Positions 20,979 through 38,384 of a stretch of DNA of 64,000 nt are shown piece by piece; position 1 is the stretch's first letter, and every line of letters begins with the position of its first letter. The translations under genes were made by a program, and so were the position numbers. Under the pieces are notes generated by a model. That model was not told the origin of the DNA, did no database searches, and worked only from the letters and a program-made list of their open reading frames with translations. Location: contig JAOAQX010000011.1 in assembly GCA_025210805.1 (NCBI GenBank), forward strand, positions 673 through 64,672, read 5' to 3'. Source of the DNA: Flavobacteriales bacterium. Lineage in GTDB: Bacteria > Bacteroidota > Bacteroidia > Flavobacteriales > CAJXXR01.

Positions 20979-21075
20979 ATAATTTTAGGCTTAAAGATAA
21001 AAATACCTCAGTAAAAATGAGTTTATTTTTGGTTTTTATGTTTGTGGAGCTTATATTTCTAGATAGTTATCCTGT

Positions 21076-21093
21076 AAAAAAAAAAAAAAAAAA
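21076..21093. repeat. poly(A)18 homopolymeric tract in divergent promoter region
   Basis: 18 consecutive A between the start of 20223..20978 (-) and the start of 21310..22401 (+). Confidence 0.9.
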
Positions 21094-21309
21094 TCAAAGC
21101 AATCACCCTACCTGTTTAACCGACTATTATAGCCTGTCACGACTTTTTGTGATGTGAATTCTTTGTACAGAAATAATGTATTGGTGAAAATCTATATTAT
21201 TAAAAATCAACGCTTCAATCTTATATTTAACATAGATTTAGTAACTTGTACCTGAATTAGTTCATTCCATTTCGGAATACACGAATAATTAACCTAAATT
21301 TATTTACTT

Positions 21310-22401
21310 ATGAAAAAGCTATTTTTTATCACCACATTTCTATTCTACTGTACGAGTATGATTGCTCAAGTTGGAGCATTCAAAATTAGGAACGATGCCG
21401 CCATTCAACTTGGATATAGTAATTATAGGTATCTCACCTTTGGTATTGGAGAAGACCCAAATAACAATAATGGATCATGGTCTATCGAACATTGGAATCA
21501 TGGACTTAATTTTTGGAAACCTTGGAATTCTTGGCATTCTGGAAATTATAAAATGTTTATCCACGATGCTGGTTTTGTAGGAATCAATATGAAACCCAAT
21601 GAAGGCTATGTCCAACAAGTCGCAACAGGTTCTTTTCTCTGGTGGTCCACCTACAGTACGCAAAGCAACTTTCGTCTCCAAGTACGAGGTAACACTATAT
21701 CTCATGGGAATTATGTATGGAGTGGGCAGAGCATGAAAAAGAACATTAATAGCCTAGATCATGGGTTGTCCAGTATTATGAAAATGAGACCCGTTAGTTA
21801 TCATTATGATTTGACCGTTTCACCTGGAGACTCTTTACCTCTATCTGATAGCGACCCTGTTAAAAACGCAACTCTTCAAGCCGAAAAAAATAGAAGTTTA
21901 CCTGAGGCTACAGAGCCTAAACATTTTGGTTTTATTGCAGAAGAGATAGATACCGTTTTCCCTAATATTGTTTCTCAAATTCAAGGTATAGAAGGTGTAA
22001 ATTATACAGAAATCATCCCTGTTTTAGTCAAAGGGATACAAGAACAGCAACAAATCATTGAGAGTCTAAAATCTGAAGTCAACAGGCTGAATGATTTAGT
22101 AGAAAGTATCAATACCGATATTATCAATGAAAAAGGAATTACTGCCAGTTTAGGACAAAACACTCCAAATCCCTTTAATGCCACAACCTCTATCTCCTAT
22201 GATATTCAGTCTGCTTTCACTGAAGCCCAAATAGTCGTTTATGATTTTTGGGGACAACAAAAAGACGAATATGATATATACTCCACAGGAGCAGGAACCT
22301 ATACTTTGGATGCCTCATCGTTGCCTGCCGGAACTTATCACTATGTCCTGATAGTTGATGATTATGTGGTTGATTCCAAGCTAATGCTCATCATTCACTA
22401 A
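21310..22401 (+). CDS. tail-fibre/peptidase S74 (intramolecular chaperone) domain protein with T9SS C-terminal sorting domain
   Basis: Signal peptide. The central segment …HFGFIAEEIDTVFPNIVSQIQGIEGVNYTEIIPVLVKGIQEQQQIIESLKSEVNRLND… resembles the endosialidase-chaperone/S74 autoproteolytic domain of phage tail fibres. The C-terminal ~90 aa (…GTYHYVLIVDDYVVDSKLMLIIH) are CTD-like. Confidence 0.55.
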   Translation: MKKLFFITTFLFYCTSMIAQVGAFKIRNDAAIQLGYSNYRYLTFGIGEDPNNNNGSWSIEHWNHGLNFWKPWNSWHSGNYKMFIHDAGFVGINMKPNEGYVQQVATGSFLWWSTYSTQSNFRLQVRGNTISHGNYVWSGQSMKKNINSLDHGLSSIMKMRPVSYHYDLTVSPGDSLPLSDSDPVKNATLQAEKNRSLPEATEPKHFGFIAEEIDTVFPNIVSQIQGIEGVNYTEIIPVLVKGIQEQQQIIESLKSEVNRLNDLVESINTDIINEKGITASLGQNTPNPFNATTSISYDIQSAFTEAQIVVYDFWGQQKDEYDIYSTGAGTYTLDASSLPAGTYHYVLIVDDYVVDSKLMLIIH

Positions 22402-22417
22402 TTCTAAAGTATAGGAT

Positions 22418-23782
22418 ATGAAACCACTGAAGATACACATATTATTGTTTGTGCTACTACTCTCCACTTCGTCAGGGACAGTAGCACAGAGTTTACCTAT
22501 AGGGGAGAATTATCATCTAGTTTTTAATGATGAATTTAGTGATAGTCTCATCAATACAGACAAATGGGAACAAAAAACACCATGGAACACCGCTACTAAT
22601 CTATTCATTGACTATTACGATGATGGAACAATTAAAAAAATATATGAACTGGCTTATCATAAATGGAGAGACCAAACAACCGATTACCGACCAGATACCA
22701 CAAACTGCAAGGTCTCTAATGGTACGGTAAAACTATATACCCGAAAAGAAAATTACGATGGTAATATCTGGGTTTGGGCACCATGCTACGCCAATGGAAT
22801 AACCATAGACGGTGATTCTTGTGATGATATGGTATATGGCCCTGGGGAAGATATTTCATCCTCTACTGGGTATAGATGCTTTGTAAGTAGCCGATATTTA
22901 CCTTATAAGTACACTACAGGAATGCTCTTTTCCAAAAAAAGCTTTAAATATGGCTATTTTGAAATCCGTTTTCGCCTTCCTCCGCCCCCTACTGCCCCCA
23001 AAAGACATATTGGGTTTGGACCCAATTTTTGGCTCTATAGTGCTGATAAAGATGGATCAAATTTCGGGTACGAAAATCACTGGAGTGAGATCGATATTTT
23101 TGAAATTGGCTATGACCAAGAGAACAATCTAAGCAATCTTTATACTACCAATGTGCATTATAGACCAATAGGTAGTGCTAGTAGTCATATCTCTAAAACA
23201 GGAAGACATGGCTATATCAGCTCAAACGAATGGCACACAGCTGGTATGCTTTGGACTTCGTCCGAAATAGAATTTTATCTGGACGGAGTAAAAATCAGAG
23301 ACTTTGAGCAAGAAATATCTATGCCAACAGACTCCCTCGTTCCTATGCCTCTTTGGATAGATATCTATTCTCCCAATAGAAATTTTGGAATCGATTTTGA
23401 CACACTAAGCACCAACGGAACTGCATTCCCTTATGTATATGAACTAGACTATGTGAGGGTATATCAGCTAAAACAAGCTTGTGAAATATCCAAACAGTAT
23501 TGTTCTGTTTTTGATGCAAGCACTTATGATGAACAACTCTATAAAAATATTGAATTTGGAGGGCTAGGTTGCCAACTAAATCTCGATAATTCGGAAGAAG
23601 TCACTTTTATGAGCGCTGAGGATATCGTATTTCACAATCAGGTGGAATTAAAACCTCAGGCAACCACCATTTTTGGAACACATATTTGTGAGCCTTATGA
23701 CCTTATACCAAAAATAGAACCCGACACCACAGTGGAACCCCCTCTATATTCTAAAATAAAATTTCTATCCGATGAAAACTAA
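22418..23782 (+). CDS. glycoside hydrolase family 16 (laminarinase-like) protein
   Basis: Signal peptide and the GH16 catalytic motif E-I-D-I-F-E (WSEIDIFEIG). Overlaps the next gene by 11 nt. Confidence 0.7.
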   Translation: MKPLKIHILLFVLLLSTSSGTVAQSLPIGENYHLVFNDEFSDSLINTDKWEQKTPWNTATNLFIDYYDDGTIKKIYELAYHKWRDQTTDYRPDTTNCKVSNGTVKLYTRKENYDGNIWVWAPCYANGITIDGDSCDDMVYGPGEDISSSTGYRCFVSSRYLPYKYTTGMLFSKKSFKYGYFEIRFRLPPPPTAPKRHIGFGPNFWLYSADKDGSNFGYENHWSEIDIFEIGYDQENNLSNLYTTNVHYRPIGSASSHISKTGRHGYISSNEWHTAGMLWTSSEIEFYLDGVKIRDFEQEISMPTDSLVPMPLWIDIYSPNRNFGIDFDTLSTNGTAFPYVYELDYVRVYQLKQACEISKQYCSVFDASTYDEQLYKNIEFGGLGCQLNLDNSEEVTFMSAEDIVFHNQVELKPQATTIFGTHICEPYDLIPKIEPDTTVEPPLYSKIKFLSDEN

Positions 23783-24464
23783 TTTATCATTAATTCTTCT
23801 TCTTTTGAGTATAGCAATTCACAATTCCTACGCTCAAATAACACCGGATTCGCTTTTGGGTGTTTATGTTGGGAAGTACTATAATAATCATAATGCTAAT
23901 TCTGACAATTGGTATATCGTTTCTGAGAATTGGACTGTACCCATCAAGGATTTAGATACACTAAATTGTCTTTCAAATAAAAGCATCACTCCATCTGGGA
24001 GTCAGCCATTTGTTTTCACTACTCCTTATGATTTTTGTAATTCAGATTTTGAGTATCAAGAAAACAATCCCGACTACTATAGATTTAATAGATTTTACGG
24101 AAAAGACAGTCTATGGGGCAATAATGAATTCATTCCAGGTCCACCACCTACAGGAACTCCATATTCCACAAGATTTATCGGGAAAAAGATGTATGAAATA
24201 GGAACAACAGAGCTGGAAAACATGCTTGCTATTCAAGTATATCCTAACCCAGCCAAAGAACTACTCAATATCCGTACAGAAGAAGATATACAGGCGGTGG
24301 ATATTCATATCTTTAATAGCAGAGGGCAAAGAGTGAAAACTTTTATAGAAAAGTACCATAAAAACTGGCTACAGGTAGATGTTTTAGATCTTCCCAAAGG
24401 AATTTATTATATCAAAATAACTTCCTTTGGAAGGGTATTTCATCAGAAATTTATTAAGATATGA
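23772..24464 (+). CDS. secreted T9SS-CTD protein, tandem paralog 1
   Basis: Signal peptide, variable middle, and a C-terminal block (…QVYPNPAKELLNIRTEEDIQAVDIHIFNSRGQRVKTFIEKYHKNWLQVDVLDLPKGIYYIKITSFGRVFHQKFIKI) with a T9SS type A CTD pattern. The stop overlaps the next start (ATGA). Confidence 0.65.
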   Translation: MKTNLSLILLLLSIAIHNSYAQITPDSLLGVYVGKYYNNHNANSDNWYIVSENWTVPIKDLDTLNCLSNKSITPSGSQPFVFTTPYDFCNSDFEYQENNPDYYRFNRFYGKDSLWGNNEFIPGPPPTGTPYSTRFIGKKMYEIGTTELENMLAIQVYPNPAKELLNIRTEEDIQAVDIHIFNSRGQRVKTFIEKYHKNWLQVDVLDLPKGIYYIKITSFGRVFHQKFIKI

Positions 24465-25150
24465 AACATATTTTTTTAATCCTTCTTCTTTTGAGTATAG
24501 CAATTCACGATTCCTACGCTCAAATAACACCGGATTCGCTTTTGGGTGTTTATGTTGGGGATCGTTTCAAAAAAACCAATGCCTATTCAAATGAATGGCT
24601 TCTGACTTCTAAGAATTGGGTAGTCACAGTGGACAAATTGGACACTACAACCTGTATTATTAGTGAAACCGTTACCCCTTGGGGTAATGCTACAATATAT
24701 CTTTATACATCTTATGATTTTTGCTTTGCAGATTTTAATTATCAAGAAAATGACCCCAACTATTATAAGTTTAGTTGGTTTTATGGAAAAGACAGTCTTT
24801 GGGCTAATAATGAATTCATTCCAGGCCCTCCTCCAAGTGGAACCCCATACTCTTTAAGATTTATCGGGAAAAAGATGTACGAAATAGGAACAACAGAGTT
24901 GGAAAATATGCTCGCTATTCAAGTATATCCTAACCCAGCCAAAGAACTGCTCAATATCCGTACAGAAGAAAACCTAGAGGCGATGGATATTCATATCTTT
25001 AATAGCAGAGGGCAAAGAGTGAAAACTTTTATAGAAAAGTACCATAAAAACTGGCTACAGGTAGATGTATTGGACCTACCCAAAGGGATCTATTATATCA
25101 AAATAGCTTCCTTTGGAAGGGTTTTTCATCAGAAATTTATTAAAATATGA
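24461..25150 (+). CDS. secreted T9SS-CTD protein, tandem paralog 2
   Basis: Near-identical first ~35 codons and last ~100 codons to 23772..24464, with a diverged middle. The ATGA overlap with the next ORF is also present. Confidence 0.65.
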   Translation: MKHIFLILLLLSIAIHDSYAQITPDSLLGVYVGDRFKKTNAYSNEWLLTSKNWVVTVDKLDTTTCIISETVTPWGNATIYLYTSYDFCFADFNYQENDPNYYKFSWFYGKDSLWANNEFIPGPPPSGTPYSLRFIGKKMYEIGTTELENMLAIQVYPNPAKELLNIRTEENLEAMDIHIFNSRGQRVKTFIEKYHKNWLQVDVLDLPKGIYYIKIASFGRVFHQKFIKI

Positions 25151-25362
25151 AAAGAACAATAATCTTGCTTTCAACTGTCATCCTATTATTCATCGGATAT
25201 TATATTTTGAACAATAAAGACGAAAAGGACATACAGAACCCCCTAAAAACTCAAACAAAACCGAGCAAAAAAGAAATTCCAAAGGATATCAACCTTTCAG
25301 ATTTCCTTACCGAGTATAAACAAGGGGAAATCAACCTAGATATTGAAGCTAAACTAACGTGA
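25147..25362 (+). CDS. small signal-anchored ORF (possibly the N-terminal fragment of a disrupted TlpA-like gene)
   Basis: 71 aa with an N-terminal hydrophobic anchor (MKRTIILLSTVILLFIGYYIL). Translationally coupled (ATGA) to the upstream paralog. Confidence 0.35.
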   Translation: MKRTIILLSTVILLFIGYYILNNKDEKDIQNPLKTQTKPSKKEIPKDINLSDFLTEYKQGEINLDIEAKLT

Positions 25363-25630: not shown

Positions 25631-26026
25631 TTGAAATCAAGTATTAAAATTAATCCCTTACATCGAACTTACGTTAAACTAGAATATTTGGATGGGAGTC
25701 CATTTTCTTATCAAGATCTTAAAACCAAAACGTATATCGTGTCATTTTGGGCGACTTACTGCTCTCCGTGTATTGAGAAATTTCCTTTACTCAATGAGAT
25801 TGCTCAAAGCAATGAATCTTTAGAAATAATCATGATTTCAGATGAAAAAACAGACTTATTAAAAACATTCTTGCAGCATCGAGAAGATATTTCCGAACTC
25901 CATTTTTTAAAACATCAAGGAAAAAATGCGGATATTGGAATAAATTTACTTCCCACTACCCTATTTGTGGAGAATGGAATACACAAAATAATATCCAATA
26001 AAGACTTGGAAAGTTTTTTGGAGTAA
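25631..26026 (+). CDS. TlpA-like thioredoxin-fold protein lacking ATG start and signal peptide (TTG start; possible truncated/pseudogene remnant)
   Basis: VSFWATYCSPCIEKFP thioredoxin motif. The ORF starts at TTG and has no signal peptide, although TlpA-family proteins are extracytoplasmic. Confidence 0.45.
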   Translation: MKSSIKINPLHRTYVKLEYLDGSPFSYQDLKTKTYIVSFWATYCSPCIEKFPLLNEIAQSNESLEIIMISDEKTDLLKTFLQHREDISELHFLKHQGKNADIGINLLPTTLFVENGIHKIISNKDLESFLE

Positions 26027-29035: not shown

Positions 29036-29437
29036 ATGAAAAGCAATAGCTTCTTAAAAGTAAAAAATTACCTCCTTGATTTGAAATACGATATTTCTTA
29101 TCAAAATGAAAAAGATGGAATTCTGATGATACAGAATGAACCAGAGGGAATCAAAAATCTGCTCATAGGATTAGCAGATCCTATTTTGATTATGGAACAA
29201 TACCTCTGTACCATTCCTAGCCCTACGGCAGAAATCTATTCAGAATTGCTCAAAAAAAACCGAGACATGGTACATGGCGCCTTCGTGTTGGATGAATCTA
29301 AAACGAAGCTGATTTTTAGAGATACACTTCAGTTAGAAAATTTGGATCAAAACGAACTCGAAGCCTCCATCAACTCATTAAGTCTCCTACTAAGCGAGTA
29401 TTCCAATGAGATACTCAAGTATTCATCAAAAAAATAA
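29036..29437 (+). CDS. hypothetical soluble protein (possibly YbjN-like), first gene of the PspA-flotillin module
   Basis: 133 aa with no TM segment, 7 nt upstream of pspA. Confidence 0.5.
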   Translation: MKSNSFLKVKNYLLDLKYDISYQNEKDGILMIQNEPEGIKNLLIGLADPILIMEQYLCTIPSPTAEIYSELLKKNRDMVHGAFVLDESKTKLIFRDTLQLENLDQNELEASINSLSLLLSEYSNEILKYSSKK

Positions 29438-29443
29438 AAGATT

Positions 29444-30154
29444 ATGAATTTTTTTAAACGACTTTTCAAAATCGGGCAAGCAGAAGCCAACTCTGCCGTT
29501 GATAAAATGGAAGACCCGATAAAAATGACGGAACAAGGTATCCGTGATATGAAAGAAGAATTGGCAAAAAGCCTAGAAGCTCTTGCTGAAGTAAAAGCTA
29601 CGACAATAAGAGCCCATAAGGACTACGAAAGTTACCTTGCCAAAGCCGAGGAATACCAAACCAAAGCCTTACTCCTGCTCAAAAAAGCACAACAAGGCGA
29701 AATGGAAATGGCTGAAGCCGAAAATTTGGCTACTCAATCCTTAGTAAAAAAGGAACAGCAAACAGAACATGCCGAAGGTGCCAAAACAGAACATACCAAA
29801 CTTTCGCAATCTGTTTCTAATTTGGAAGGAAATATCAGCGAGCTAAGAAGCACCATCGAAAAATGGGAAAATGAACTCAAAACGCTTAAAGCTCGTGTAA
29901 AAGTAAGTAGTGCAACCAAAAAAATCAACAAAGAAATGGCAAGAATCGATCAAGATTCTACTGTTGAAATGTTAGAACGCATGAAAGAAAAAGTAGCTCA
30001 GGAAGAAGCCATGGCAGAAGCTTATGGTGACATTGCCGAAAAAGGAAAATCGATTGATAAAAAAATTGATAAAGCCATTGATACGCAAAAAGAATCGGCA
30101 AAAACTGAACTAGAAAAACTAAAAGATCAGTTAGGAATGACGGAAAATGAATAA
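29444..30154 (+). CDS. pspA: PspA/IM30 (Vipp1) family protein
   Basis: N-terminus MNFFKRLFKIGQAEANSAVDKMEDPIKMTEQGIRDMKEEL matches the PspA/IM30 start (FxRL…DKxEDPxKMxxQxIRDM). The whole 236 aa are a predicted coiled coil. Confidence 0.85.
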   Translation: MNFFKRLFKIGQAEANSAVDKMEDPIKMTEQGIRDMKEELAKSLEALAEVKATTIRAHKDYESYLAKAEEYQTKALLLLKKAQQGEMEMAEAENLATQSLVKKEQQTEHAEGAKTEHTKLSQSVSNLEGNISELRSTIEKWENELKTLKARVKVSSATKKINKEMARIDQDSTVEMLERMKEKVAQEEAMAEAYGDIAEKGKSIDKKIDKAIDTQKESAKTELEKLKDQLGMTENE

Positions 30155-30212
30155 GTTTACTGTTCAATAGTAAATTTTCCACAAAACAATACCTTAAAAC
30201 AAAGTAATAAAG

Positions 30213-30929
30213 ATGATCGATATTTTATTCTCCCCAGTCAATATGACGCTCACCATTTTACTGATAATTCTAATTTTATATTGGGTGATCTCTATGCTTA
30301 CGGGAACGGACTGGGATGTGGATGTAGATATCGACGTTGACGTAGATATTGATATAGATATTGATGCCGATATTAATCATCAAATTCCCACACAAGATTT
30401 TGAGTTTGGAGAACTTTCCAATACTGAGATTAACAAGGAAGATATTTTGTCCAAAAGACTTCCCAGAAAGCTCAAATGGTGGCAAATAGTACTCATTCAT
30501 TTCAATTTTGTGGGACTTCCTTTTATGTTCACTTTTACCTGTTGGATTTTCTTCTGGTGGTTTACCACGCTTTTATCCACCTATATCACGGGGAGTTATG
30601 ACAATTCCTTTGGATTCATTCTTTTCTTTATTCTGTTGATTCCTTCTTTGTATCTCACAAAATTGTTCACCATTCCTTTTAAAGCATTTTTTAAAAACAT
30701 CAACAAAGATGGTGACCAAGCCATCAATTTTGAAGGTAGGCTTGGACATATCAAATCGAGTATTTCGGGAGAAAAACTCGGCACGGCAGAACTCATCATT
30801 GAAGGCAACCCTTATATATTGAATGTAAAAGCATTCGAAGGACAGAAGATTGAATACGGACAACAAATTTTGGTCATTATTCAAGATTCCTCCAAAACTT
30901 TTTATTTAGTAAAACCATATTCCAATTAA
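30213..30929 (+). CDS. NfeD-like/YqiJ-like membrane protein with acidic (DV/DI)n repeat
   Basis: TM helices, a DWDVDVDIDVDVDIDIDIDADINH repeat, and a C-terminal OB-fold-like segment (GRLGHIKSSISGEKLGTAELIIEGNPYILNVKAFEGQKIEYGQQILVI) typical of NfeD partners of SPFH proteins. Confidence 0.6.
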   Translation: MIDILFSPVNMTLTILLIILILYWVISMLTGTDWDVDVDIDVDVDIDIDIDADINHQIPTQDFEFGELSNTEINKEDILSKRLPRKLKWWQIVLIHFNFVGLPFMFTFTCWIFFWWFTTLLSTYITGSYDNSFGFILFFILLIPSLYLTKLFTIPFKAFFKNINKDGDQAINFEGRLGHIKSSISGEKLGTAELIIEGNPYILNVKAFEGQKIEYGQQILVIIQDSSKTFYLVKPYSN

Positions 30930-30950
30930 TTAAACCTTAAAAATAACACT

Positions 30951-33050
30951 ATGACAGATGAAATTTTATCCATTGTAGGAATAGGAGTAGGAGTCATACT
31001 CTTTTTGGTGATTGTATATTTCGCCATTATCGCCATGTTCTACCGAAAAATCCCACAAGGAAAAGCCTTGGTGAGAACAGGTTTCGGGGGAACCAAAGTA
31101 GCTACGGACAAAGGACTTTATGTAGTTCCCGTATTCCACAAAGTAGAAATCATGGATATTTCGGTAAAAAAGATTGATATCGAACGTATTTCGTCGGATG
31201 GTCTTTTGTGTAAAGACAACCTGAGAGCGGATATCAAAGTAGCCTTTTTTGTAAGAGTAAACAATGAAGTGGAGCATATCAAAAAGGTAGCTCAAACCAT
31301 TGGGTGTACCCGTGCCTCAAGCCATGCTACTTTAGAAGCACTTTTTGAAGCCAAGTTCTCGGAAGCCTTAAAAACAGTAGGAAAAAAATTCGATTTTATT
31401 GAACTTTACGAAGCTCGTAGAGAGTTTAGAGACGAAATTATCAATATTATCGGAACCGATCTAAATGGATATATTTTAGATGATTGTGCCATCGATTATT
31501 TAGAACAAACTTCTATCGGACATCTAAAACCTGATAATATTTTGGATGCCGAGGGAATCAAAAAGATTACCGAGTTAACGGCTATTCAAAACAAAAAAGC
31601 CAATTTGATCAAAAGAGATGAAGAAAAAGTCATCCGCAAGCAAGATGTTGAAGCTCGTGAAGCTATTTTGGAACTCGACAAACAACTGGCTGAAAAAGAA
31701 GAACAACAGGCTCGTGAAATTGCCAATATTAAAGCTAGAGAACAAGCTGAAATAGACAAGGTAGCTTCAGAAGAAAGGCTTAAAGCAGAAAATGCTCGAA
31801 TTGCATCGGATGAGAAAATTGCTATTGCCGAAGAAAACAAAGATCGCCAAATCATTGTAGCTCAAAAAAACAAAGAACGTACAGACGCTGTCGAGACCGA
31901 AAGAGTGGAAAAAGACCGTGCTTTGGAAGCTACCGAAAGAGAACGCATAGTTACACTCGCTCAGATCGAGAAGGAAAAAGTAGTGGAAGTAGAAAAGAAA
32001 AATATCCAAGACGTAATCCGAGATCGTGTGGCGCTTGAAAAAGGAGTTGTAGAAGAACAAGAAAACATCAAAGACCTGGAAGCTTTTAAGGAAGCCGAAA
32101 GAGAAAAACAAGTAGCGATTACCCATGCAGAAAAAGCTGCCGAGGAAAATATGATTCAGCAAATAAAAGTAGCTGAGGCCGAAAAAGAAGCTTCGAAACA
32201 AAAAGCAGAACAACTGCAAATAGAAGCTCAGGCACAAAAAGATGCTGCCGTAAAAGAAGCAGATGCCCGTAAAACCATTGCCGAAGCGAGAGCCAAAGAA
32301 GAAGCTGCCATTGGTATTTCGGAAGCTCAAGTAATGCATGCCAAAGCAGAAGCCAGCGAAAGACAAGGATTTGTGGAAGCCAATGTAACAGAAAAACAAG
32401 CCTTAGCGGAAGCTATCGGAATTAAAGCCAAAGCCGATGCACTCAAGGAACAAGGTCTTGCAGAAGCAGAAGTGATTCGTCAAAAAGGAGAATCGGAGGC
32501 CGATATCATCAAACAAAAAGCCTTTGCAGAAGCCGTAGGAATAGACGAAAAAGCAGAAGCCATGAAGAAATTTGATGGTGTAGGTAGAGAACACGAAGAA
32601 TTTAAACTGAAACTGGATAAAGAACTTCAAGTGGACTTGGCACAAATTAATATTCAAAAAGAAATTGCTGATGCACAAGCTATGGTAATTGCCGAAGCCC
32701 TAAAAGCTGCTAATATTGATATTGTAGGTGGAGAGACCATGTTCTTTGACCAGATTATCGGGCAAGTAACTAGAGCCAAAGGATTCGATCGTTTGGTAGC
32801 ACATTCTGAAACCGTAACCGATGTAAAAGACGCTATTTTAGGTTCTGATGACGTAAAAGGAAATCTTTTAGAAAAAGTACGAGATATGGCAATCAAATAC
32901 GGAGTCTCTTCAGAAGATCTTAAAAACCTAAGTATTGCCCAGCTTATTTTTAAACTGCAAAGCGAAGCTTCTTCTGATGAAAAACAAGGAATCAGTGGAT
33001 TATTAGGATTAGCGAAAGCTTTAGGTTTGGACCAAAATAAATTGTCCTAA
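30951..33050 (+). CDS. flotillin family protein (SPFH/band-7 domain plus long E/A/K-rich coiled coil)
   Basis: N-terminal TM, SPFH core (…GFGGTKVATDKGLYVVPVFHKVEIMDISVKKIDIER…), then ~400 aa of EA-repeat coiled coil as in YqiK/FloT. Confidence 0.85.
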   Translation: MTDEILSIVGIGVGVILFLVIVYFAIIAMFYRKIPQGKALVRTGFGGTKVATDKGLYVVPVFHKVEIMDISVKKIDIERISSDGLLCKDNLRADIKVAFFVRVNNEVEHIKKVAQTIGCTRASSHATLEALFEAKFSEALKTVGKKFDFIELYEARREFRDEIINIIGTDLNGYILDDCAIDYLEQTSIGHLKPDNILDAEGIKKITELTAIQNKKANLIKRDEEKVIRKQDVEAREAILELDKQLAEKEEQQAREIANIKAREQAEIDKVASEERLKAENARIASDEKIAIAEENKDRQIIVAQKNKERTDAVETERVEKDRALEATERERIVTLAQIEKEKVVEVEKKNIQDVIRDRVALEKGVVEEQENIKDLEAFKEAEREKQVAITHAEKAAEENMIQQIKVAEAEKEASKQKAEQLQIEAQAQKDAAVKEADARKTIAEARAKEEAAIGISEAQVMHAKAEASERQGFVEANVTEKQALAEAIGIKAKADALKEQGLAEAEVIRQKGESEADIIKQKAFAEAVGIDEKAEAMKKFDGVGREHEEFKLKLDKELQVDLAQINIQKEIADAQAMVIAEALKAANIDIVGGETMFFDQIIGQVTRAKGFDRLVAHSETVTDVKDAILGSDDVKGNLLEKVRDMAIKYGVSSEDLKNLSIAQLIFKLQSEASSDEKQGISGLLGLAKALGLDQNKLS

Positions 33051-33098
33051 GCAAGAGAAATAGTTTAGTTTTTTCAACAAAATGGAGTTGTACCAAAA

Positions 33099-33539
33099 GT
33101 GATACATTGCTTTTGGTACACAAAACTCCTATCAGGAATTTTATCAATAAAAAGGATGTTTACTATCATCATATACAGCATATTGTCAGGATTATTTTCC
33201 TATTTTCTCTATATGCTTTTTAGCTCCAAGAATATTGGATGGAATGCAGATACTCTGCTCCCCATCTTAATTATGAGTGCGGTAAGCGTTTTGATGATCA
33301 GCCTTTTGTTTTCACAAGAATACCTACTTACAGATCAAACTTCTACCGAAACTAAAAAGCCCGTATTTATGGAGCGCATTGATTCTATTTCGTATATAAG
33401 TTCGAAAAAAGATTCAGCACTTCTCCCAACAGATTCCACTATTTCGGAAGCTTATCATCCGTCTTTTGACAAGCTCTTTATCACTCCAAGACGAGCCCAT
33501 TTTTTTACACAAGAAATCATCAAAAGTCAGATTAAATAA
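33099..33539 (+). CDS. small predicted membrane protein (uncertain)
   Basis: 146-aa ORF filling the flotillin-giant gap, with two hydrophobic helices. The annotated start lies inside a 10-bp-stem hairpin (33094-33123), so the real start may be the internal Met. Confidence 0.3.
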   Translation: MIHCFWYTKLLSGILSIKRMFTIIIYSILSGLFSYFLYMLFSSKNIGWNADTLLPILIMSAVSVLMISLLFSQEYLLTDQTSTETKKPVFMERIDSISYISSKKDSALLPTDSTISEAYHPSFDKLFITPRRAHFFTQEIIKSQIK

Positions 33540-33569
33540 ACCTACCCCACACTAGAAATACAATAATAT

Positions 33570-36500
33570 ATGAGCCTAGAAACTGGTACATACGAAATCA
33601 TACAAGGAAGATTAGAAAAGCAAAAAAAAGATCTATTAGAAAGACTGGAAAAGCTCAATAATTCCAGAAAAGAAGTCTTTGGTGCTGTAGATCTAAAAAT
33701 TATTGCCAATAAAAGGATCAATACGGATAATAATTGTATTGCTCGAGATATTATTTCTTTTGGAAATACCTGTCTTTTGGGGTATAATGTACATATAGGT
33801 CTGCGATCGCAAATTAAACTTTCCGATGTTTTTTCTGCCTACCAATTTGAGAATGGAAATTTTAAAGCCATTGATTTAACACTCATTAATGATGAGGCTT
33901 TTATTAATGATTTCGAGAACCTATACAAATACTATCGAGATACTATTTTTGCTCGTTTTGCCATTATTGGGAATTATGTCCACATGGTTTTTCAGATTTC
34001 GGATAAAATTCATGATATAAAAACCTTCAAATGGCTCTTGAATGACAATCAATTGCGTTATATCGATAATCGATCTGATTTTGAATATGGTTTTCCAAAC
34101 CAACATGAATTTGAATGGAAAAAACCAGTAAGAGAAATGCACCGATACGGTACACATGCCCATGTTTCTATTCTAGATAAAGTATTTGTAGAAACCATTG
34201 GTGGCGATCTTACGATAAAGATAGAAGACAATACCGACATTGGACAAGGGATCTTTTCGGAACCTGTAGAATTTCAAGATCAAACCCTAGATGATGCCGA
34301 GTATTTCTATGCAGATTTAGGTAATCTGATTATCCTAAAAATTAAACCCTACCAAGAAGATTTTCGATATTTTGTGTATAACCACAAAGTACAAGAAGTC
34401 TATAAAATAGACAGCATCAAAGATGCAACTGTTTTGCTTCCCGAAAATCAAGGAATTTTATTTCCAAACGGTTATTATCTTCAAACTGGAACTTACAAAC
34501 TCTTTGAAAAAAGCATTGAGCAGGTTAAGTTCTTAAAACGACTTGCAGCTCCCAATGGAGAGGATTTTATCTTTGTATTCTACGAAGAAGCCAAAGGGGA
34601 TTTTGTTTTGATATTTTATAATATTATCGATCAAGAAATAAAAACACCCATTATTTGCAACGGATACACCGTTTTTCCCGATGGAGAACTTTCTTATTTT
34701 AAAGCCGAAGAAGACGCTACCAAACACCATGTAATCCAAATTTGGCAAACGCCATTTACCAAGAAAACACTCGTTCAATCGGAACATTCAGATCGTTTGA
34801 TTTATAAAATTGGGAATAAAGACCTTGTAAAAGCCATGGCAGAAAGTAGGGAACTCATTGGCTTGCTCAATAAAGAGGATTCTTACGATGGGCTTTATGA
34901 TGATATTGCCAAGCTTTCTGGAGATATAGTTGATTCCTACTATTGGATACATGAGCCCGAAACCGCACAATTATCGGTTCCTTTATCAGAAATTCAAAAC
35001 ACGGCAAATACTGCCATAGACGAGTTTGAAAAAGTCATTCAACTCAAAAAACAGGCAAAAGAAAAAACCGACGCACTTTCTCAAGAAGCCAAACAACTTT
35101 TTGATGAAATAAAACACGCACGTTTTCAAGATATTCAGGAATTCGTGGAAGTTTTAGCTAATCTGAGATTACTCAGAGGAAATACAATTGGACTCAAAGA
35201 TATTCGCTACACCGAAAATGCCTTTATTGAAGCGCTAGAAAACGAAATCGTTGAAAAAACAGGACATATTTCTACTCGCTGTGTAGATTTCTTGATGAAT
35301 GCGGAAGCCTTGCTTCCTTACACCCAAGCCGTAAAAGAAAAAGAGGCAAATATTGAAGCCGTCAAAAAAGTAATTGATGGGAAAAAGCTTCACGAAGAAT
35401 TGGAAAAAATTAGTGCAGATCTAGAACTTCTCATTGATATTGTGAATAATTTGGAAATTGAAGATACGGCACATTCTACGCAAATAATAGATGGTATTTC
35501 GGTCATTTTTGCGGAACTCAACCGTGTAAAAGCCTCCTTAAAAAGAAGACTTTCTAATCTTGGGACTGCCGAAGCTCAAGCAGATTTTACGGCACAAATA
35601 AAACTTTTTGATCAGTCTGTGCTCAATGCTTTGGATCTTTCACAAACACCCGAAAAATGTGATGAATACCTCACTAAACTATCAGTTCAACTAGAAGAAA
35701 TAGAAGGGAAATTTGCCGAATATGACGAATTTGTCAACCATATTTTAGAAAAAAGAGAAGAAATTTATTCGGCATTCGAAACCCGAAAAAATGCCTTAAT
35801 TGAAAAACGCAACAAAAGATCTCTGACACTTTCCAACTCGGCAGATAGAATCTTGAAAGGCGTACGTAAGAAGGCCCAAACCTTTAGAACTGCCGAAGAA
35901 ATACACGCTTACTTTGCTGCCGATATTATGGTTGCCAAAATCCATGATATCATCCAAAACCTCAACGATCTGGAAGATTCTGGAAAAGCAGAACAAATTG
36001 CTTCCAAATTAAAGATAAGCAAAGAAGAAAGTCTCAGAAAACTTAAAGATAAACTAGAATTATACGAAGAAGGTGATCATATCATCCGTTTTGGAAATCA
36101 TCGTTTTGGGGTGAATCAACAACCGTTAGATTTAAGTATTGTAGAGCAAGATCACCAACTATTTTTTCATCTTTCTGGTTCAGACTTTTATGAGCAGGTG
36201 AAAGACGAAAATATCCGAAATCACCAATCTCTTTGGAATGCGGAATATGTTTCGGAAAACACACATGTTTACCGCAGTGAGTATTTAGCTTTTCAAATGC
36301 TAAAAAAATATACTTCGGAACAATTACTCAAACCAGATTTTCTAAAAAAAATCATCAAAGAATATACTTCAAAACACTATACCGAAGGATATACCAAAGG
36401 TGTGCACGATAGTGATGCCGAAACTTTAGTAACTGCCTTAGCGCAGATTCAACAGAGTATGGGATTGTTAAAATTCTCTCCTGAAATAAGAGGTAAAGCC

Positions 36501-38384
36501 TTATGGTTTTGGAAGAGTTTGAATCCTCAAAAACATCAAAGTTGGCAAGAAAAAATATCCGCTGCTCAGCAAGTGCTCCAACTGTTCCCAAAATCGGAAA
36601 ATTTCACTTTTCTAATTGATGAGCTAGAAGAAGCTGTAGCTCATTTCTATTCTGACTGGAAAGGATGGAAAACAACAGAGAACCGAACCATTGCCTTATA
36701 TCTTTTTGAGGAGTTTCAAAAAGAAGACTCAATCATAATCAGCCGAAAGGCAGAAAAAATCTATCAAGAATTTATAGCGCATCTCCAAAACAATCAAGCA
36801 AAAAGCACTTTTACTAAGCGTATAGAAAAGATGGAAAACTTGGAAGAGAAAGTTGCCTACTGCCAATATTGGTTATCGGCTTTCATACAAAATAGCCAAG
36901 ACCCAGATACACTCTTCTATATTTATGAAATTATCGCTCTAATTCTCTTCGATTTTTCTTCATTTACCCATGTCAATACAACTGAAACGCTAAAAGAAAT
37001 TGCTCTCATTGGAGCACATCCTTCGATAAAAAACGGGAGCTACACCTTAAATTATCATAGCTTCTTTGACAAACTCACCCGTTTTGAACAAGAATATATT
37101 CCGCAGTTTTTAGCTTTTAAAAATGCTAAACAAACCCTTTTACAAGAGAAAAAAGCGAGTTTAAAACTAAATGAATTTAAACCCAAAGTTTTGGCTTCGT
37201 TTGTTAGAAATAAACTTATAGACCAAGTATATCTTCCACTTTTTGGGAGCAATCTTGCCAAACAACTAGGTACCGTTGGCGACAACAAAAGAGTGGATCG
37301 GATGGGAATGCTCTTACTCATCTCTCCGCCTGGATACGGAAAAACGACCCTGATGGAATATATTGCCAACCGTATGGGGATGACTTTTATGAAAATAAAC
37401 GGACCCGCCATTGGGCATGAAGTTACTTCAGTGGATCCAATGTCTGCCAACAACTCGGCCGCCAGAGAAGAGCTCAAAAAACTTAATCTCGCCTTTGAAA
37501 TGGGAAATAATGTGATGCTTTACCTAGACGATATTCAGCATTGCAACCCAGAATTTTTACAAAAATTTATTTCCCTTGCCGACGGACAAAGAAAAATAGA
37601 AGGAGTCTATAATGGTCAACCTAAGACTTATGATTTTAGGGAGAAAAAATTCTGTATCATCATGGCAGGAAATCCTTATACCGAAAGTGGAGAAAAATTT
37701 CAAATTCCCGATATGCTCACCAACCGATCAGACATTTATAATCTGGGAGACATTATCGGAGAATCGGCACAGTTGTTTGAACTAAGTATGGTAGAAAATG
37801 CTTTGAGCTCAAATACTATTCTAAGGAATCTGAGTACACAAAGCATGGACGATCTGTACGAAATCATCCATTTTATTGAAGGAAACAAACAAGGAACCTT
37901 AAACCTAAAGGGCAACCACAGTAAGAGTGATATAGAAACCTATGTAGCTACCTTAGAAAAACTATTGAAGATAAGAGATATTGTTCTCCAAGTAAACAAA
38001 ACCTATATCGAATCGGCTTCTATGGATGATGCTTACCGTACCGAACCTTCTTTTAAACTCCAAGGGTCTTACCGAGACATGAATAAACTAGCCGAGAAAA
38101 TACTCCCCATCATGAATGCTAAAGAATTAGAAATATTAGTCAATACGCATTATGAAAATGAATCTCAAACTTTAACCTCTGCCTCAGAAGCCAATTTATT
38201 AAAGTATAAAGAACTCACGAAACAACTCACAGAAGATGAAATAGAAAGGTGGAAAAGCATCAAGCAAACGTTTAAAGAAAATCAATCGACTCAATCGGAT
38301 AGTTATATGCAATCACTTTTGGAAGAATTGGCAAAATTGACCGATGGTTTAGATGGGATAAAAGGTGTGCTGGGAAAAAGATAA
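33570..38384 (+). CDS. 1604-aa protein with C-terminal AAA+ ATPase domain of the AAA_5 (MoxR/dynein/McrB-like) class; N-terminal ~1250 aa of unknown function
   Basis: Walker A LLISPPGYGKTTLMEY (nt 37332-37349 encode GYGKTT). Walker B VMLYLDDIQH. Sensor-1 region FCIIMAGNPYTESGEKFQIPDMLTNRSDIY matches the MoxR-type pattern. Long predicted coiled-coil stretches in the middle. Uninterrupted ORF. Confidence 0.8.
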   Translation: MSLETGTYEIIQGRLEKQKKDLLERLEKLNNSRKEVFGAVDLKIIANKRINTDNNCIARDIISFGNTCLLGYNVHIGLRSQIKLSDVFSAYQFENGNFKAIDLTLINDEAFINDFENLYKYYRDTIFARFAIIGNYVHMVFQISDKIHDIKTFKWLLNDNQLRYIDNRSDFEYGFPNQHEFEWKKPVREMHRYGTHAHVSILDKVFVETIGGDLTIKIEDNTDIGQGIFSEPVEFQDQTLDDAEYFYADLGNLIILKIKPYQEDFRYFVYNHKVQEVYKIDSIKDATVLLPENQGILFPNGYYLQTGTYKLFEKSIEQVKFLKRLAAPNGEDFIFVFYEEAKGDFVLIFYNIIDQEIKTPIICNGYTVFPDGELSYFKAEEDATKHHVIQIWQTPFTKKTLVQSEHSDRLIYKIGNKDLVKAMAESRELIGLLNKEDSYDGLYDDIAKLSGDIVDSYYWIHEPETAQLSVPLSEIQNTANTAIDEFEKVIQLKKQAKEKTDALSQEAKQLFDEIKHARFQDIQEFVEVLANLRLLRGNTIGLKDIRYTENAFIEALENEIVEKTGHISTRCVDFLMNAEALLPYTQAVKEKEANIEAVKKVIDGKKLHEELEKISADLELLIDIVNNLEIEDTAHSTQIIDGISVIFAELNRVKASLKRRLSNLGTAEAQADFTAQIKLFDQSVLNALDLSQTPEKCDEYLTKLSVQLEEIEGKFAEYDEFVNHILEKREEIYSAFETRKNALIEKRNKRSLTLSNSADRILKGVRKKAQTFRTAEEIHAYFAADIMVAKIHDIIQNLNDLEDSGKAEQIASKLKISKEESLRKLKDKLELYEEGDHIIRFGNHRFGVNQQPLDLSIVEQDHQLFFHLSGSDFYEQVKDENIRNHQSLWNAEYVSENTHVYRSEYLAFQMLKKYTSEQLLKPDFLKKIIKEYTSKHYTEGYTKGVHDSDAETLVTALAQIQQSMGLLKFSPEIRGKALWFWKSLNPQKHQSWQEKISAAQQVLQLFPKSENFTFLIDELEEAVAHFYSDWKGWKTTENRTIALYLFEEFQKEDSIIISRKAEKIYQEFIAHLQNNQAKSTFTKRIEKMENLEEKVAYCQYWLSAFIQNSQDPDTLFYIYEIIALILFDFSSFTHVNTTETLKEIALIGAHPSIKNGSYTLNYHSFFDKLTRFEQEYIPQFLAFKNAKQTLLQEKKASLKLNEFKPKVLASFVRNKLIDQVYLPLFGSNLAKQLGTVGDNKRVDRMGMLLLISPPGYGKTTLMEYIANRMGMTFMKINGPAIGHEVTSVDPMSANNSAAREELKKLNLAFEMGNNVMLYLDDIQHCNPEFLQKFISLADGQRKIEGVYNGQPKTYDFREKKFCIIMAGNPYTESGEKFQIPDMLTNRSDIYNLGDIIGESAQLFELSMVENALSSNTILRNLSTQSMDDLYEIIHFIEGNKQGTLNLKGNHSKSDIETYVATLEKLLKIRDIVLQVNKTYIESASMDDAYRTEPSFKLQGSYRDMNKLAEKILPIMNAKELEILVNTHYENESQTLTSASEANLLKYKELTKQLTEDEIERWKSIKQTFKENQSTQSDSYMQSLLEELAKLTDGLDGIKGVLGKR

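Follow-up and report, generated by a model that had tools for sequence, protein, structure and literature searches.

S74 chaperone domains have been described in phage fibres, in MyRF and, recently, in Bdellovibrio surface fibres. Their canonical motif is SDxxxK, and in MyRF cleavage at the equivalent Ser parts the N-terminal trimer from the C-terminal anchored portion. Type IX secretion system (T9SS) cargo is normally seen as monomers, which retain their C-terminal domain (CTD) until a sortase removes it; to our knowledge, known T9SS cargo has not been described as S74-chaperoned trimers that cut off their own CTD. For Bdellovibrio bacteriovorus, one report (PMC10769870) gives experimental support for cellular fibres that are trimeric, S74-terminated and self-cleaving: 13 of 21 mosaic adhesive trimeric (MAT) fibres end in an S74 domain with SDxxxK, and Bd3182 cleaves itself at S782. 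We analyzed a 64,000-nucleotide stretch of contig JAOAQX010000011.1 from a Flavobacteriales bacterium, referred to below as the window, in which four tightly packed plus-strand open reading frames (ORFs) at 21310-25150 encode a fibre-like protein with an S74 domain followed by a T9SS CTD, a glycoside hydrolase family 16 (GH16) glycanase, and two paralogous CTD proteins designated parA and parB; a fifth ORF, of 71 aa, reaches 25362. Our best reading, to which we give a probability of about 0.5, is that the fibre gene, GH16, parA and parB form a chromosomal operon of four, possibly five, genes for a trimeric surface fibre, MAT-like or tail-fibre-like and adapted to the T9SS, which would be functionally coupled to the glycanase.

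Compared with its viral relatives, the fibre protein is the last ~250 residues of a phage-type fibre, one fibre unit and the S74 chaperone, with a Sec signal in front and a T9SS tag behind. The Peptidase_S74 model PF13884 matches residues 141-221 (E = 3.4e-9, 37.3 bits, gathering cutoff 22), and the T9SS model TIGR04183 matches residues 285-359 (28.9 bits, cutoff 23), with the Pfam CTD model PF18962 reaching 22.1 bits, under its cutoff of 27. The S74 domain is internal, being followed by ~93 residues of linker and CTD. Eighteen PHROG families of tail-fibre, tail-spike or baseplate proteins also match, in each case at the C-terminal end of the profile. When the PDB was searched with the single fibre sequence, only a marginal match was obtained; a profile built from 35 homologs matched the distal subunit of the phage S16 long tail fibre (6f45, E = 9e-13), the MyRF ICA domain (7dc3, E = 1e-6), the GA-1 neck-appendage chaperone (3gud) and, weakly, the beta-helix repeats of Bdellovibrio Bd2133 (E = 0.054). 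An AlphaFold2 model of the protein (mean pLDDT 80.8) found MyRF ICA 7dc3 as its best fold match in the PDB (E = 1e-4, TM score 0.70 normalised to the target), the other fold matches being Ig-like domains on the CTD, including the PorU CTD. A first-pass annotation of this DNA had seen, upstream of a T9SS CTD, a segment resembling the S74 chaperone of tail fibres; the PF13884, PHROG and 6f45 matches make that resemblance significant, and the fibre gene, GH16 and the two CTD paralogs were all found where that annotation had placed them.

The predicted autoproteolytic motif lies at the start of the S74 domain, where S138 and K143 are invariant in 35/35 aligned sequences. A wider count covered 118 aligned S74 domains out of 120 homologs listed, and there Ser and Lys were each present in 118/118 and Asp in 116/118; Gly in place of Asp occurs only in the fibre protein (SGQSMK) and its nearest relative (SGLNMK). 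The chain of 3gud starts exactly at the Ser of its SDERHK motif, which aligns with S138, and by profile S138 also aligns with the mutated S587 of MyRF 7dc3. Judging from these alignments, self-processing of the fibre protein is plausible.

The second gene encodes a divergent GH16 protein, matched by PF00722 at 57.1 bits (cutoff 22) and named by NCBI 'MAG: glycoside hydrolase family 16 protein' (MAG, metagenome-assembled genome). In alignments with GH16 enzymes of known structure, its EIDIFE motif pairs with EIDFPE and EIDILE, and its AlphaFold2 model (pLDDT 85, pTM 0.86) matches GH16 beta-jelly-roll structures in Foldseek with E about 1e-17. Among the top fold matches, kappa-carrageenases (9xl7, 9xkt, 5ocq) alternate with laminarinases (4bq1, 4dfs, 8xph), all at 15-21% identity, and by sequence a kappa-carrageenase is marginally best (E = 1.5e-10) versus a laminarinase (2.4e-8); NCBIfam equivalog scores are all far under their cutoffs. 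Because carrageenases and laminarinases match about equally weakly, the label 'laminarinase-type' given to the enzyme in the first-pass annotation is unsupported. The same annotation had the fibre and the hydrolase exported together through the T9SS. For the hydrolase this is unsupported: it has a signal peptide, and neither a type A nor a type B CTD was found on it with PF18962, PF13585, TIGR04183 or TIGR04131. CTDs are present on the other three of the four proteins.

Members of the GH16 subfamily share a C-terminal module of the form GGxGC...DYVLLNEGFSID..SNVLLNV..C, followed by a tail PPPPxSFxxR, and C355 and C424 are invariant among the 45 GH16 homologs aligned. The NCBIfam model NF045639 (GCX_COOH, or 3-coathanger; cutoff 26) scores 37.5 bits on subfamily member P0168, 34.8 on P0196 and 28.3 on P0175, and falls below threshold at the homologous position in the orthologs of loci L046, L049, L050 and L051 (loci fetched from other genomes are numbered L). 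In the window GH16 the GGxxC-38 aa-C spacing is that of the L046 ortholog, with which a BLAST alignment runs through the module. Since the orthologs match and the Cys spacing is kept, we take the window module to be homologous by position to the 3-coathanger stack of the orthologs; on this evidence, the C-terminus of the window GH16 is probably a module of the 3-coathanger type that has diverged, with a short tail after it. The Pro-rich tail, PPPPxSFxxR/K, ends the subfamily (orthologs P0122-P0150) and measures 30 aa in the window protein (Table 1); it may serve in sorting or docking.

The four genes are packed in an operon-like manner. The gaps between successive ORFs, counting the 71-aa ORF, are 16, -11, -4 and -4 nt, and such small or overlapping gaps fit a single operon. 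Comparison with related genomes extends the coupling of the first two genes. We examined the contigs of six GH16 orthologs (L046-L051, 32-45% identity), taking GH16 as the starting point, and an S74-CTD gene adjoined it in 6/6, in either gene order, although for L048 only the CTD of a cut gene is visible. In L046 and L047, GH16 is followed by the fibre gene; in L049, L050 and L051, the order is fibre gene, GH16 and a CTD protein of 218-229 aa. In L048, a gene cut by the contig end, whose visible CTD matches the CTD model of the S74 family, is followed by GH16, a parA homolog (216 aa, 30% identity, E = 4e-22), a 252-aa protein and a 226-aa CTD protein. A parA-like CTD gene thus stands directly after GH16 in four of the six orthologs (L048-L051). 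The flanking genes differ in every ortholog locus, indicating that the module is self-contained. The N-terminal parts of the fibres vary by locus, L046-L051 carrying a 'TPDYTWW..GIFHP' repeat instead of the window N-domain, with the S74-CTD part constant. From this synteny the GH16-fibre pairing is not accidental, and the recurrence of a fibre, a GH16 and a small secreted protein suggests a shared cell-surface function. Of the secreted polysaccharide-targeting system that the first-pass annotation had proposed, the coupling of fibre, GH16 and CTD paralogs is therefore upheld by gene spacing and 6/6 synteny; joint export through the T9SS and a laminarinase-type specificity find no such support.

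The two downstream proteins, parA and parB, have strong CTDs (about 55 bits, Pfam), which are 80-100% identical per 20-residue block. Over alignment residues 41-80 they retain only 35-40% amino acid and 53-57% nucleotide identity. This hypervariable patch has sharp bounds, flanked by a near-identical signal peptide and N-terminal start on one side and the well-conserved CTD on the other, a pattern that suggests diversifying selection or segmental exchange. The family is small: an exhaustive search of 1.8 billion proteins gave 27 representatives, mostly of 205-233 aa, and a word-indexed homolog search with parA returned only the two paralogs.

Table 1 Features of the locus and other window features mentioned in the text (window positions; residue numbers refer to the encoded protein).
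Feature	Position	Strand	Remarks
Upstream intergenic region, 331 nt	20979..21309	+	shared with a divergent lipoprotein gene on the minus strand
Two Bacteroidota -7-like boxes, TAnnTTTG	21024-21031, 21037-21044		upstream of the fibre gene; candidate promoter
A18 homopolymer	21076-21093		in the upstream intergenic region, ~32 nt downstream of the TAnnTTTG boxes
Fibre-like S74-CTD protein, 363 aa	21310..22401	+	domain, profile and fold evidence
Signal peptide, residues 1-20	21310-21369	+	MKKLFFITTFLFYCTSMIAQ, read by eye from the sequence; kept in the 35-sequence alignment
Beta-rich N-domain, residues 21-137 (117 aa)	21370-21720	+	
S74 chaperone and coiled coil, residues 138-270	21721-22119	+	long helix predicted at 232-269
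Predicted autoproteolytic motif, S138-G-Q-S-M-K143	21721..21738	+	predicted cut W137/S138
T9SS type A CTD, residues 284-363	22159-22398	+	after a linker; TIGR04183
Divergent GH16 glycanase, 454 aa	22418..23782	+	signal peptide, residues 1-24; without T9SS CTD
GH16 catalytic motif, E224-I-D226-I-F-E229 (ExDxxE; EIDIFE)	23087..23104	+	E224, D226 and E229 invariant in 45 homologs
Cys-bracketed C-terminal beta module of GH16, residues 378-424	23549..23689	+	GGLGC, 38 residues, C424
Pro-rich tail of GH16, 30 aa	23690-23779		...VEPPLYSKIKFLSDEN
parA, 230 aa	23772..24464	+	signal peptide, ~130-aa N-domain, type A T9SS CTD; overlaps GH16 by 11 nt
parB, 229 aa	24461..25150	+	tandem paralog of parA, 76% identical overall
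Most diverged patch of parA and parB	23871-24071 (parA, residues 34-100), 24557-24757 (parB)		peak at residues 41-80
71-aa ORF	25147..25362	+	hydrophobic segment at the N-terminus; 4-nt overlap with the parB stop
Thioredoxin/TlpA-like ORF	25631-26026		TTG start; frame differs from that of the 71-aa ORF; JGI version shorter, 95 aa
Cluster unrelated to the module	29036-38384		CesT-like chaperone, PspA/IM30, 699-aa unannotated protein, 1604-aa DUF3686 + DUF7902 + AAA ATPase
832-aa protein	56715-59213		Lamin Tail Domain and type B T9SS CTD (CHU_C 31 bits, cutoff 27)

The coupling of fibre genes to hydrolases was also seen with enzymes other than this GH16. Beside S74/fibre genes of other Bacteroidota lie genes for a wide range of hydrolases with signal peptides, among them S8 subtilases (L007 and L012 by Pfam, L008 and L010 because their sequences resemble L007), M43 (L009), C13 (L014) and trypsin-like (L005) proteases, zincins (a weak M12-type match in L004, and in L015 an HExxH-type motif that was read without a Pfam match), a different GH16 (L002) and an M36 enzyme with its own CTD (L006). 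A GCX_COOH module is found at the C-terminus of such fibre-neighbour hydrolases, NF045639 scoring 28.5 bits in L007, at or above its cutoff, and 22.1 bits in L002; our own hidden Markov models (HMMs) also pick it up. In the fetched loci, 10 of 73 ORFs adjacent to a fibre gene carry GCX versus 12 of 319 other ORFs (odds ratio 4.1, p = 0.003), a conservative comparison drawn within the flanks of fibre loci. In the fibre/enzyme pairs, the CTD is usually on one partner only: on the fibre in L002, L004, L005, L007, L009, L012, L046-L051 and the window, and on the enzyme in L006, L036 and L038, with L010 and L015 as exceptions. No function of, or publication on, the 'coathanger stack' or GCX_COOH was found in a literature search, and the linkage to fibres would be the first functional lead for this uncharacterised domain.

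Between fibre and enzyme genes there is often a small ORF of 125-220 aa with a signal peptide or lipoprotein signal. These small proteins are very diverse, and because similarity among those beside fibre genes was undetectable across loci, parA and parB could not be unified with the small lipoproteins found elsewhere. Tandem pairs of small secreted proteins that mirror parA/parB follow the fibre gene at L031 2105-3080 (160 and 154 aa, 78% identity) and at L002 7076-7938 (142 and 144 aa, 25% identity).

Homolog search revealed at least 147 protein clusters with the S74+CTD architecture across Bacteroidota, nearly all of which carry PF13884; by our own HMM, the CTD is present in 109 of 120 listed cellular homologs. 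The few named homologs, from Muribaculaceae and Brumimicrobium, bear the automatic NCBI name 'tail fiber domain-containing protein', and among scanned GTDB genomes, relatives turned up in Flavobacteriaceae, Microscilla, Saprospiraceae, Bacteroidales, Sphingobacteriales, Crocinitomicaceae and Chitinophagaceae MAGs. Relatives on IMG/VR viral contigs are fibres of 966-1329 aa that end in an S74 domain, with an N-domain-like unit immediately before it and no CTD. Literature searches on S74 or PF13884 with T9SS or Bacteroidetes gave no paper on the S74+CTD combination, and a search on MAT fibres in Bacteroidetes gave nothing relevant. The combination had first been called unusual and not well described; with so many clusters, auto-named by NCBI, 'unusual' overstates the case; undescribed it does appear to be.

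The N-domain unit of the window protein is repeated several times over in other Bacteroidota proteins that are far larger, up to 1169 aa, with one of 1648 aa in L018; loci L020-L045 encode such proteins, for example at L034 626-4135 and L021 2934-5366. By our own HMM, a few of these large repeat proteins carry S74 and most show none; GCX-domain proteins again follow many of them. The outer-membrane vesicle proteome of Tannerella forsythia (PMC10682907) includes WP_046825792.1, a 'tail fiber domain-containing protein' of 362 aa. As a candidate by name and length, it may be an expressed member of the S74+CTD family in a cultivable T9SS organism.

Promoters of Bacteroidota differ from the sigma-70 type, and a scan for sigma-70 promoters and terminators was uninformative, hairpins turning up in coding regions only. 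The two TAnnTTTG boxes upstream of the fibre gene are candidates only, because the window as a whole shows no enrichment of the motif (78 found versus 89 expected). The A18 tract below them could be a slipped-strand, phase-variable switch over the operon. At the other end, the 71-aa ORF explains why the first-pass annotation let the operon run to 25362; no conservation of it was found in related loci, and its belonging to the module is uncertain. A gap of 268 nt follows it. Together with the thioredoxin/TlpA-like ORF listed in Table 1, the 71-aa ORF could be a disrupted membrane-anchored thiol-disulfide oxidoreductase, which, if true, bears on the Cys-rich GH16.

Genes surrounding the locus include those for alternative complex III, cytochrome oxidase, a thioredoxin-like protein, an erythromycin-esterase-like protein, an XRE regulator, PspA, Rho, DnaG and PurF. 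No component of the T9SS machinery was found in the 64-kb window, which does encode further type A and type B CTD proteins; among them is the 832-aa protein in Table 1, and with it the genome encodes both CTD classes. The cluster at 29036-38384 is unrelated to the module.

The analysis bears out the domain identities, the signal peptides and CTDs, the retained catalytic residues of S74 and GH16 and the conserved linkage of the genes. That the fibre trimerises and cuts itself, in which order it is exported and cut, whether the proteins associate physically and what they act on, we infer from established knowledge of type A T9SS cargo and of the S74 domains of K1F endoNF, T5 pb1, MyRF and Bd3182, as follows. 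All four proteins would reach the periplasm via Sec. There, the S74 domain and coiled coil of the fibre protein would trimerise and template the N-domain trimer, and the CTD would carry the fibre trimer through the T9SS. The Ser138-Lys143 dyad would then cut between W137 and S138, exposing or releasing the fibre tip as in phage and Bdellovibrio MAT fibres; such a cut would make the S74-CTD part a disposable folding-and-export cassette. At the cell surface, the fibre would be joined by the GH16 endo-glycanase and by the small hypervariable CTD proteins in acting on a glycan.

Several observations weigh against this mechanism. Its main weakness is the order of export and cleavage: if the cut were made in the periplasm, the N-domain would be parted from its own CTD before export, and the architecture would be paradoxical. 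Cleavage itself may be impaired, because Gly replaces the near-universal Asp of SDxxxK. The mechanism needs a trimer, and the AlphaFold2 model of the fibre protein is of a monomer. Being without a CTD, the GH16 might act in the periplasm. The C-terminus of the window GH16 scores with none of our own GCX HMM, the iterated HMM and the NCBIfam model; the iterated HMM may have drifted, and the GCX enrichment is set against locus flanks rather than a genome-wide background.

The paradox of order would disappear if the fibre protein were never cut. In that case, S74 would serve here as a trimerisation module only, cleavage having been lost through D139G, and the intact trimer would be tethered by its processed CTD as a short adhesin. 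The restriction of the Gly to the fibre protein and its closest relative agrees with such a loss; set against it, Ser and Lys are strictly kept, even in both Gly sequences, and Asp has not been established as essential, so that we consider a loss of cleavage improbable. The missing CTD of the hydrolase could be accounted for by docking, in which the 3-coathanger module of the CTD-less enzyme would attach it to the S74-CTD fibre, either in the periplasm or at the surface, for carriage through the T9SS or for a cohesin-dockerin-like display. This fits the presence of a CTD on one partner only in most fibre/enzyme pairs, the occurrence of the GCX module as the C-terminus of otherwise unrelated enzymes beside fibre genes, and the constancy of S74-CTD where the N-part varies between fibre types. 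L010 and L015 are exceptions, however, enzymes with their own CTD still retain GCX, and the module of the window GH16 is diverged; we also know of no precedent for piggy-back secretion through the T9SS, and regard docking as unlikely. Generalised, the same idea becomes a widespread two-component T9SS cargo system, with the trimeric S74-CTD fibre as carrier or scaffold, CTD-less hydrolases docked via GCX_COOH, S74 autocleavage as programmed release, and exchangeable enzymes (GH16, S8, M43, C13, trypsin-like, zincin) and small hypervariable partners. We hold this generalisation to be equally doubtful; if true, it would be the first case of T9SS piggy-back secretion or of cohesin-dockerin-like enzyme display in this system.

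The variability of the partners can also be read as a sign of conflict between cells. As an antagonism or predation cassette, the locus would combine a variable hydrolase as effector, small neighbours as immunity proteins, inhibitors or specificity factors, and a fibre that targets other cells. Fibre-adjacent enzymes are indeed highly variable (proteases, a lipase-like protein, GH16), the small neighbours show great diversity and are frequently found as tandem pairs of diversified members (parA/parB, L031, L002), and prey recognition by Bdellovibrio S74 fibres is described in PMC10769870. A GH16 would be an atypical toxin, though, and neither toxin domains nor genes of a type VI secretion system or an extracellular contractile injection system (eCIS) lie nearby; moreover, parA and parB both carry CTDs, which argues for export and not for retention in an immunity role. 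A cassette of this kind seems to us slightly less probable again than docking or a loss of cleavage. Least likely by far is that the S74 gene is the decaying tail-fibre fragment of a prophage or eCIS, with unrelated neighbours. S74 and N-domain units are common to phage tail fibres, and S74 genes can occur in eCIS loci (PMC8213781); against such a remnant, the fibre ORF is intact with signal peptide and CTD, the same architecture occurs in those many other clusters with conserved GH16 synteny, and the neighbours in the window are respiratory and housekeeping genes. A prophage or eCIS origin was largely excluded, as no phage or eCIS structural genes were found in the 64-kb window.

The trimeric, T9SS-adapted fibre coupled to a glycanase thus remains our preferred reading, and the family it belongs to matters beyond this locus. 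A large Bacteroidota family sets a trimerisation chaperone, predicted to be self-cleaving, directly before a T9SS tag, an architecture that is widespread and auto-annotated, yet undescribed and mechanistically puzzling. It raises the question of the order of folding, export and cleavage, and of whether the T9SS can handle trimers. The linkage of fibres and hydrolases, for its part, points to an undescribed organisation of secreted enzymes in marine and gut Bacteroidota.

Among known systems, the S74 proteins of phage endosialidases and tail fibres (K1F endoNF 3GW6, T5 pb1 4UW8, GA-1 3GUD, S16 6F45) share with the fibre protein the Pfam domain, the Ser/Lys pair at i, i+5, the coiled-coil helix that follows, and a beta-rich unit with a VGI..P...L-type motif in front of the domain. 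In phages, S74 closes a long virion protein at its very C-terminus, whereas in the window protein it is internal, with the CTD after it; the window fibre further differs in what stands before S74, a Sec signal peptide and no more than 117 residues, and in having Gly for Asp and no phage context. Closer in setting is the S74 subgroup of MAT fibres, exemplified by Bd3182, which according to PMC10769870 is likewise cellular, Sec-exported, tail-fibre-like and equipped with an S74 chaperone. The capping-loop motif of MAT fibres given there, V-G-x-pi-x-x-P-x-x-x-L, is recognisable in relatives of the window protein. Fibres of this subgroup end in a self-cleaving S74, whereas cleavage of the window S74 is predicted from sequence. 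MATs are also larger, at about 1000 aa, and have a conserved ~130-aa N-terminal domain and no T9SS CTD, and linkage to hydrolase genes is not reported in the portion of PMC10769870 available. At 363 aa in a Bacteroidota family usually of 240-420 aa, the window protein is much shorter than the long beta-helical fibres of the MAT family.

MyRF ICA (7DC3) is the best structural match and has a topology analogous to the succession of fibre N-part, S74 and an anchoring or sorting domain; MyRF, however, is a eukaryotic membrane-bound transcription factor of about 20% identity and unrelated function. Type A T9SS cargo (TIGR04183/PF18962) resembles the fibre protein in its signal peptide and its C-terminal Ig-like CTD with a PNPF motif. 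The window GH16 shares the beta-jelly-roll and ExDxxE with the marine Bacteroidota GH16 enzymes, kappa-carrageenase SfGH16 (9XKT) and laminarinase ZgLamA (4BQ1), from which it differs in identity (~20%), in its extra Cys-rich insertions, coathanger-type module and Pro-rich tail, and in lying outside a polysaccharide utilization locus. NF045639 (GCX_COOH) is matched at the C-terminus by GH16 orthologs and by other fibre-neighbour hydrolases, the window copy giving no significant match. The fibre protein is best filed with a known kind, the cellular S74-terminated tail-fibre-like proteins, to which it adds adaptation to the T9SS and genetic coupling to a hydrolase.

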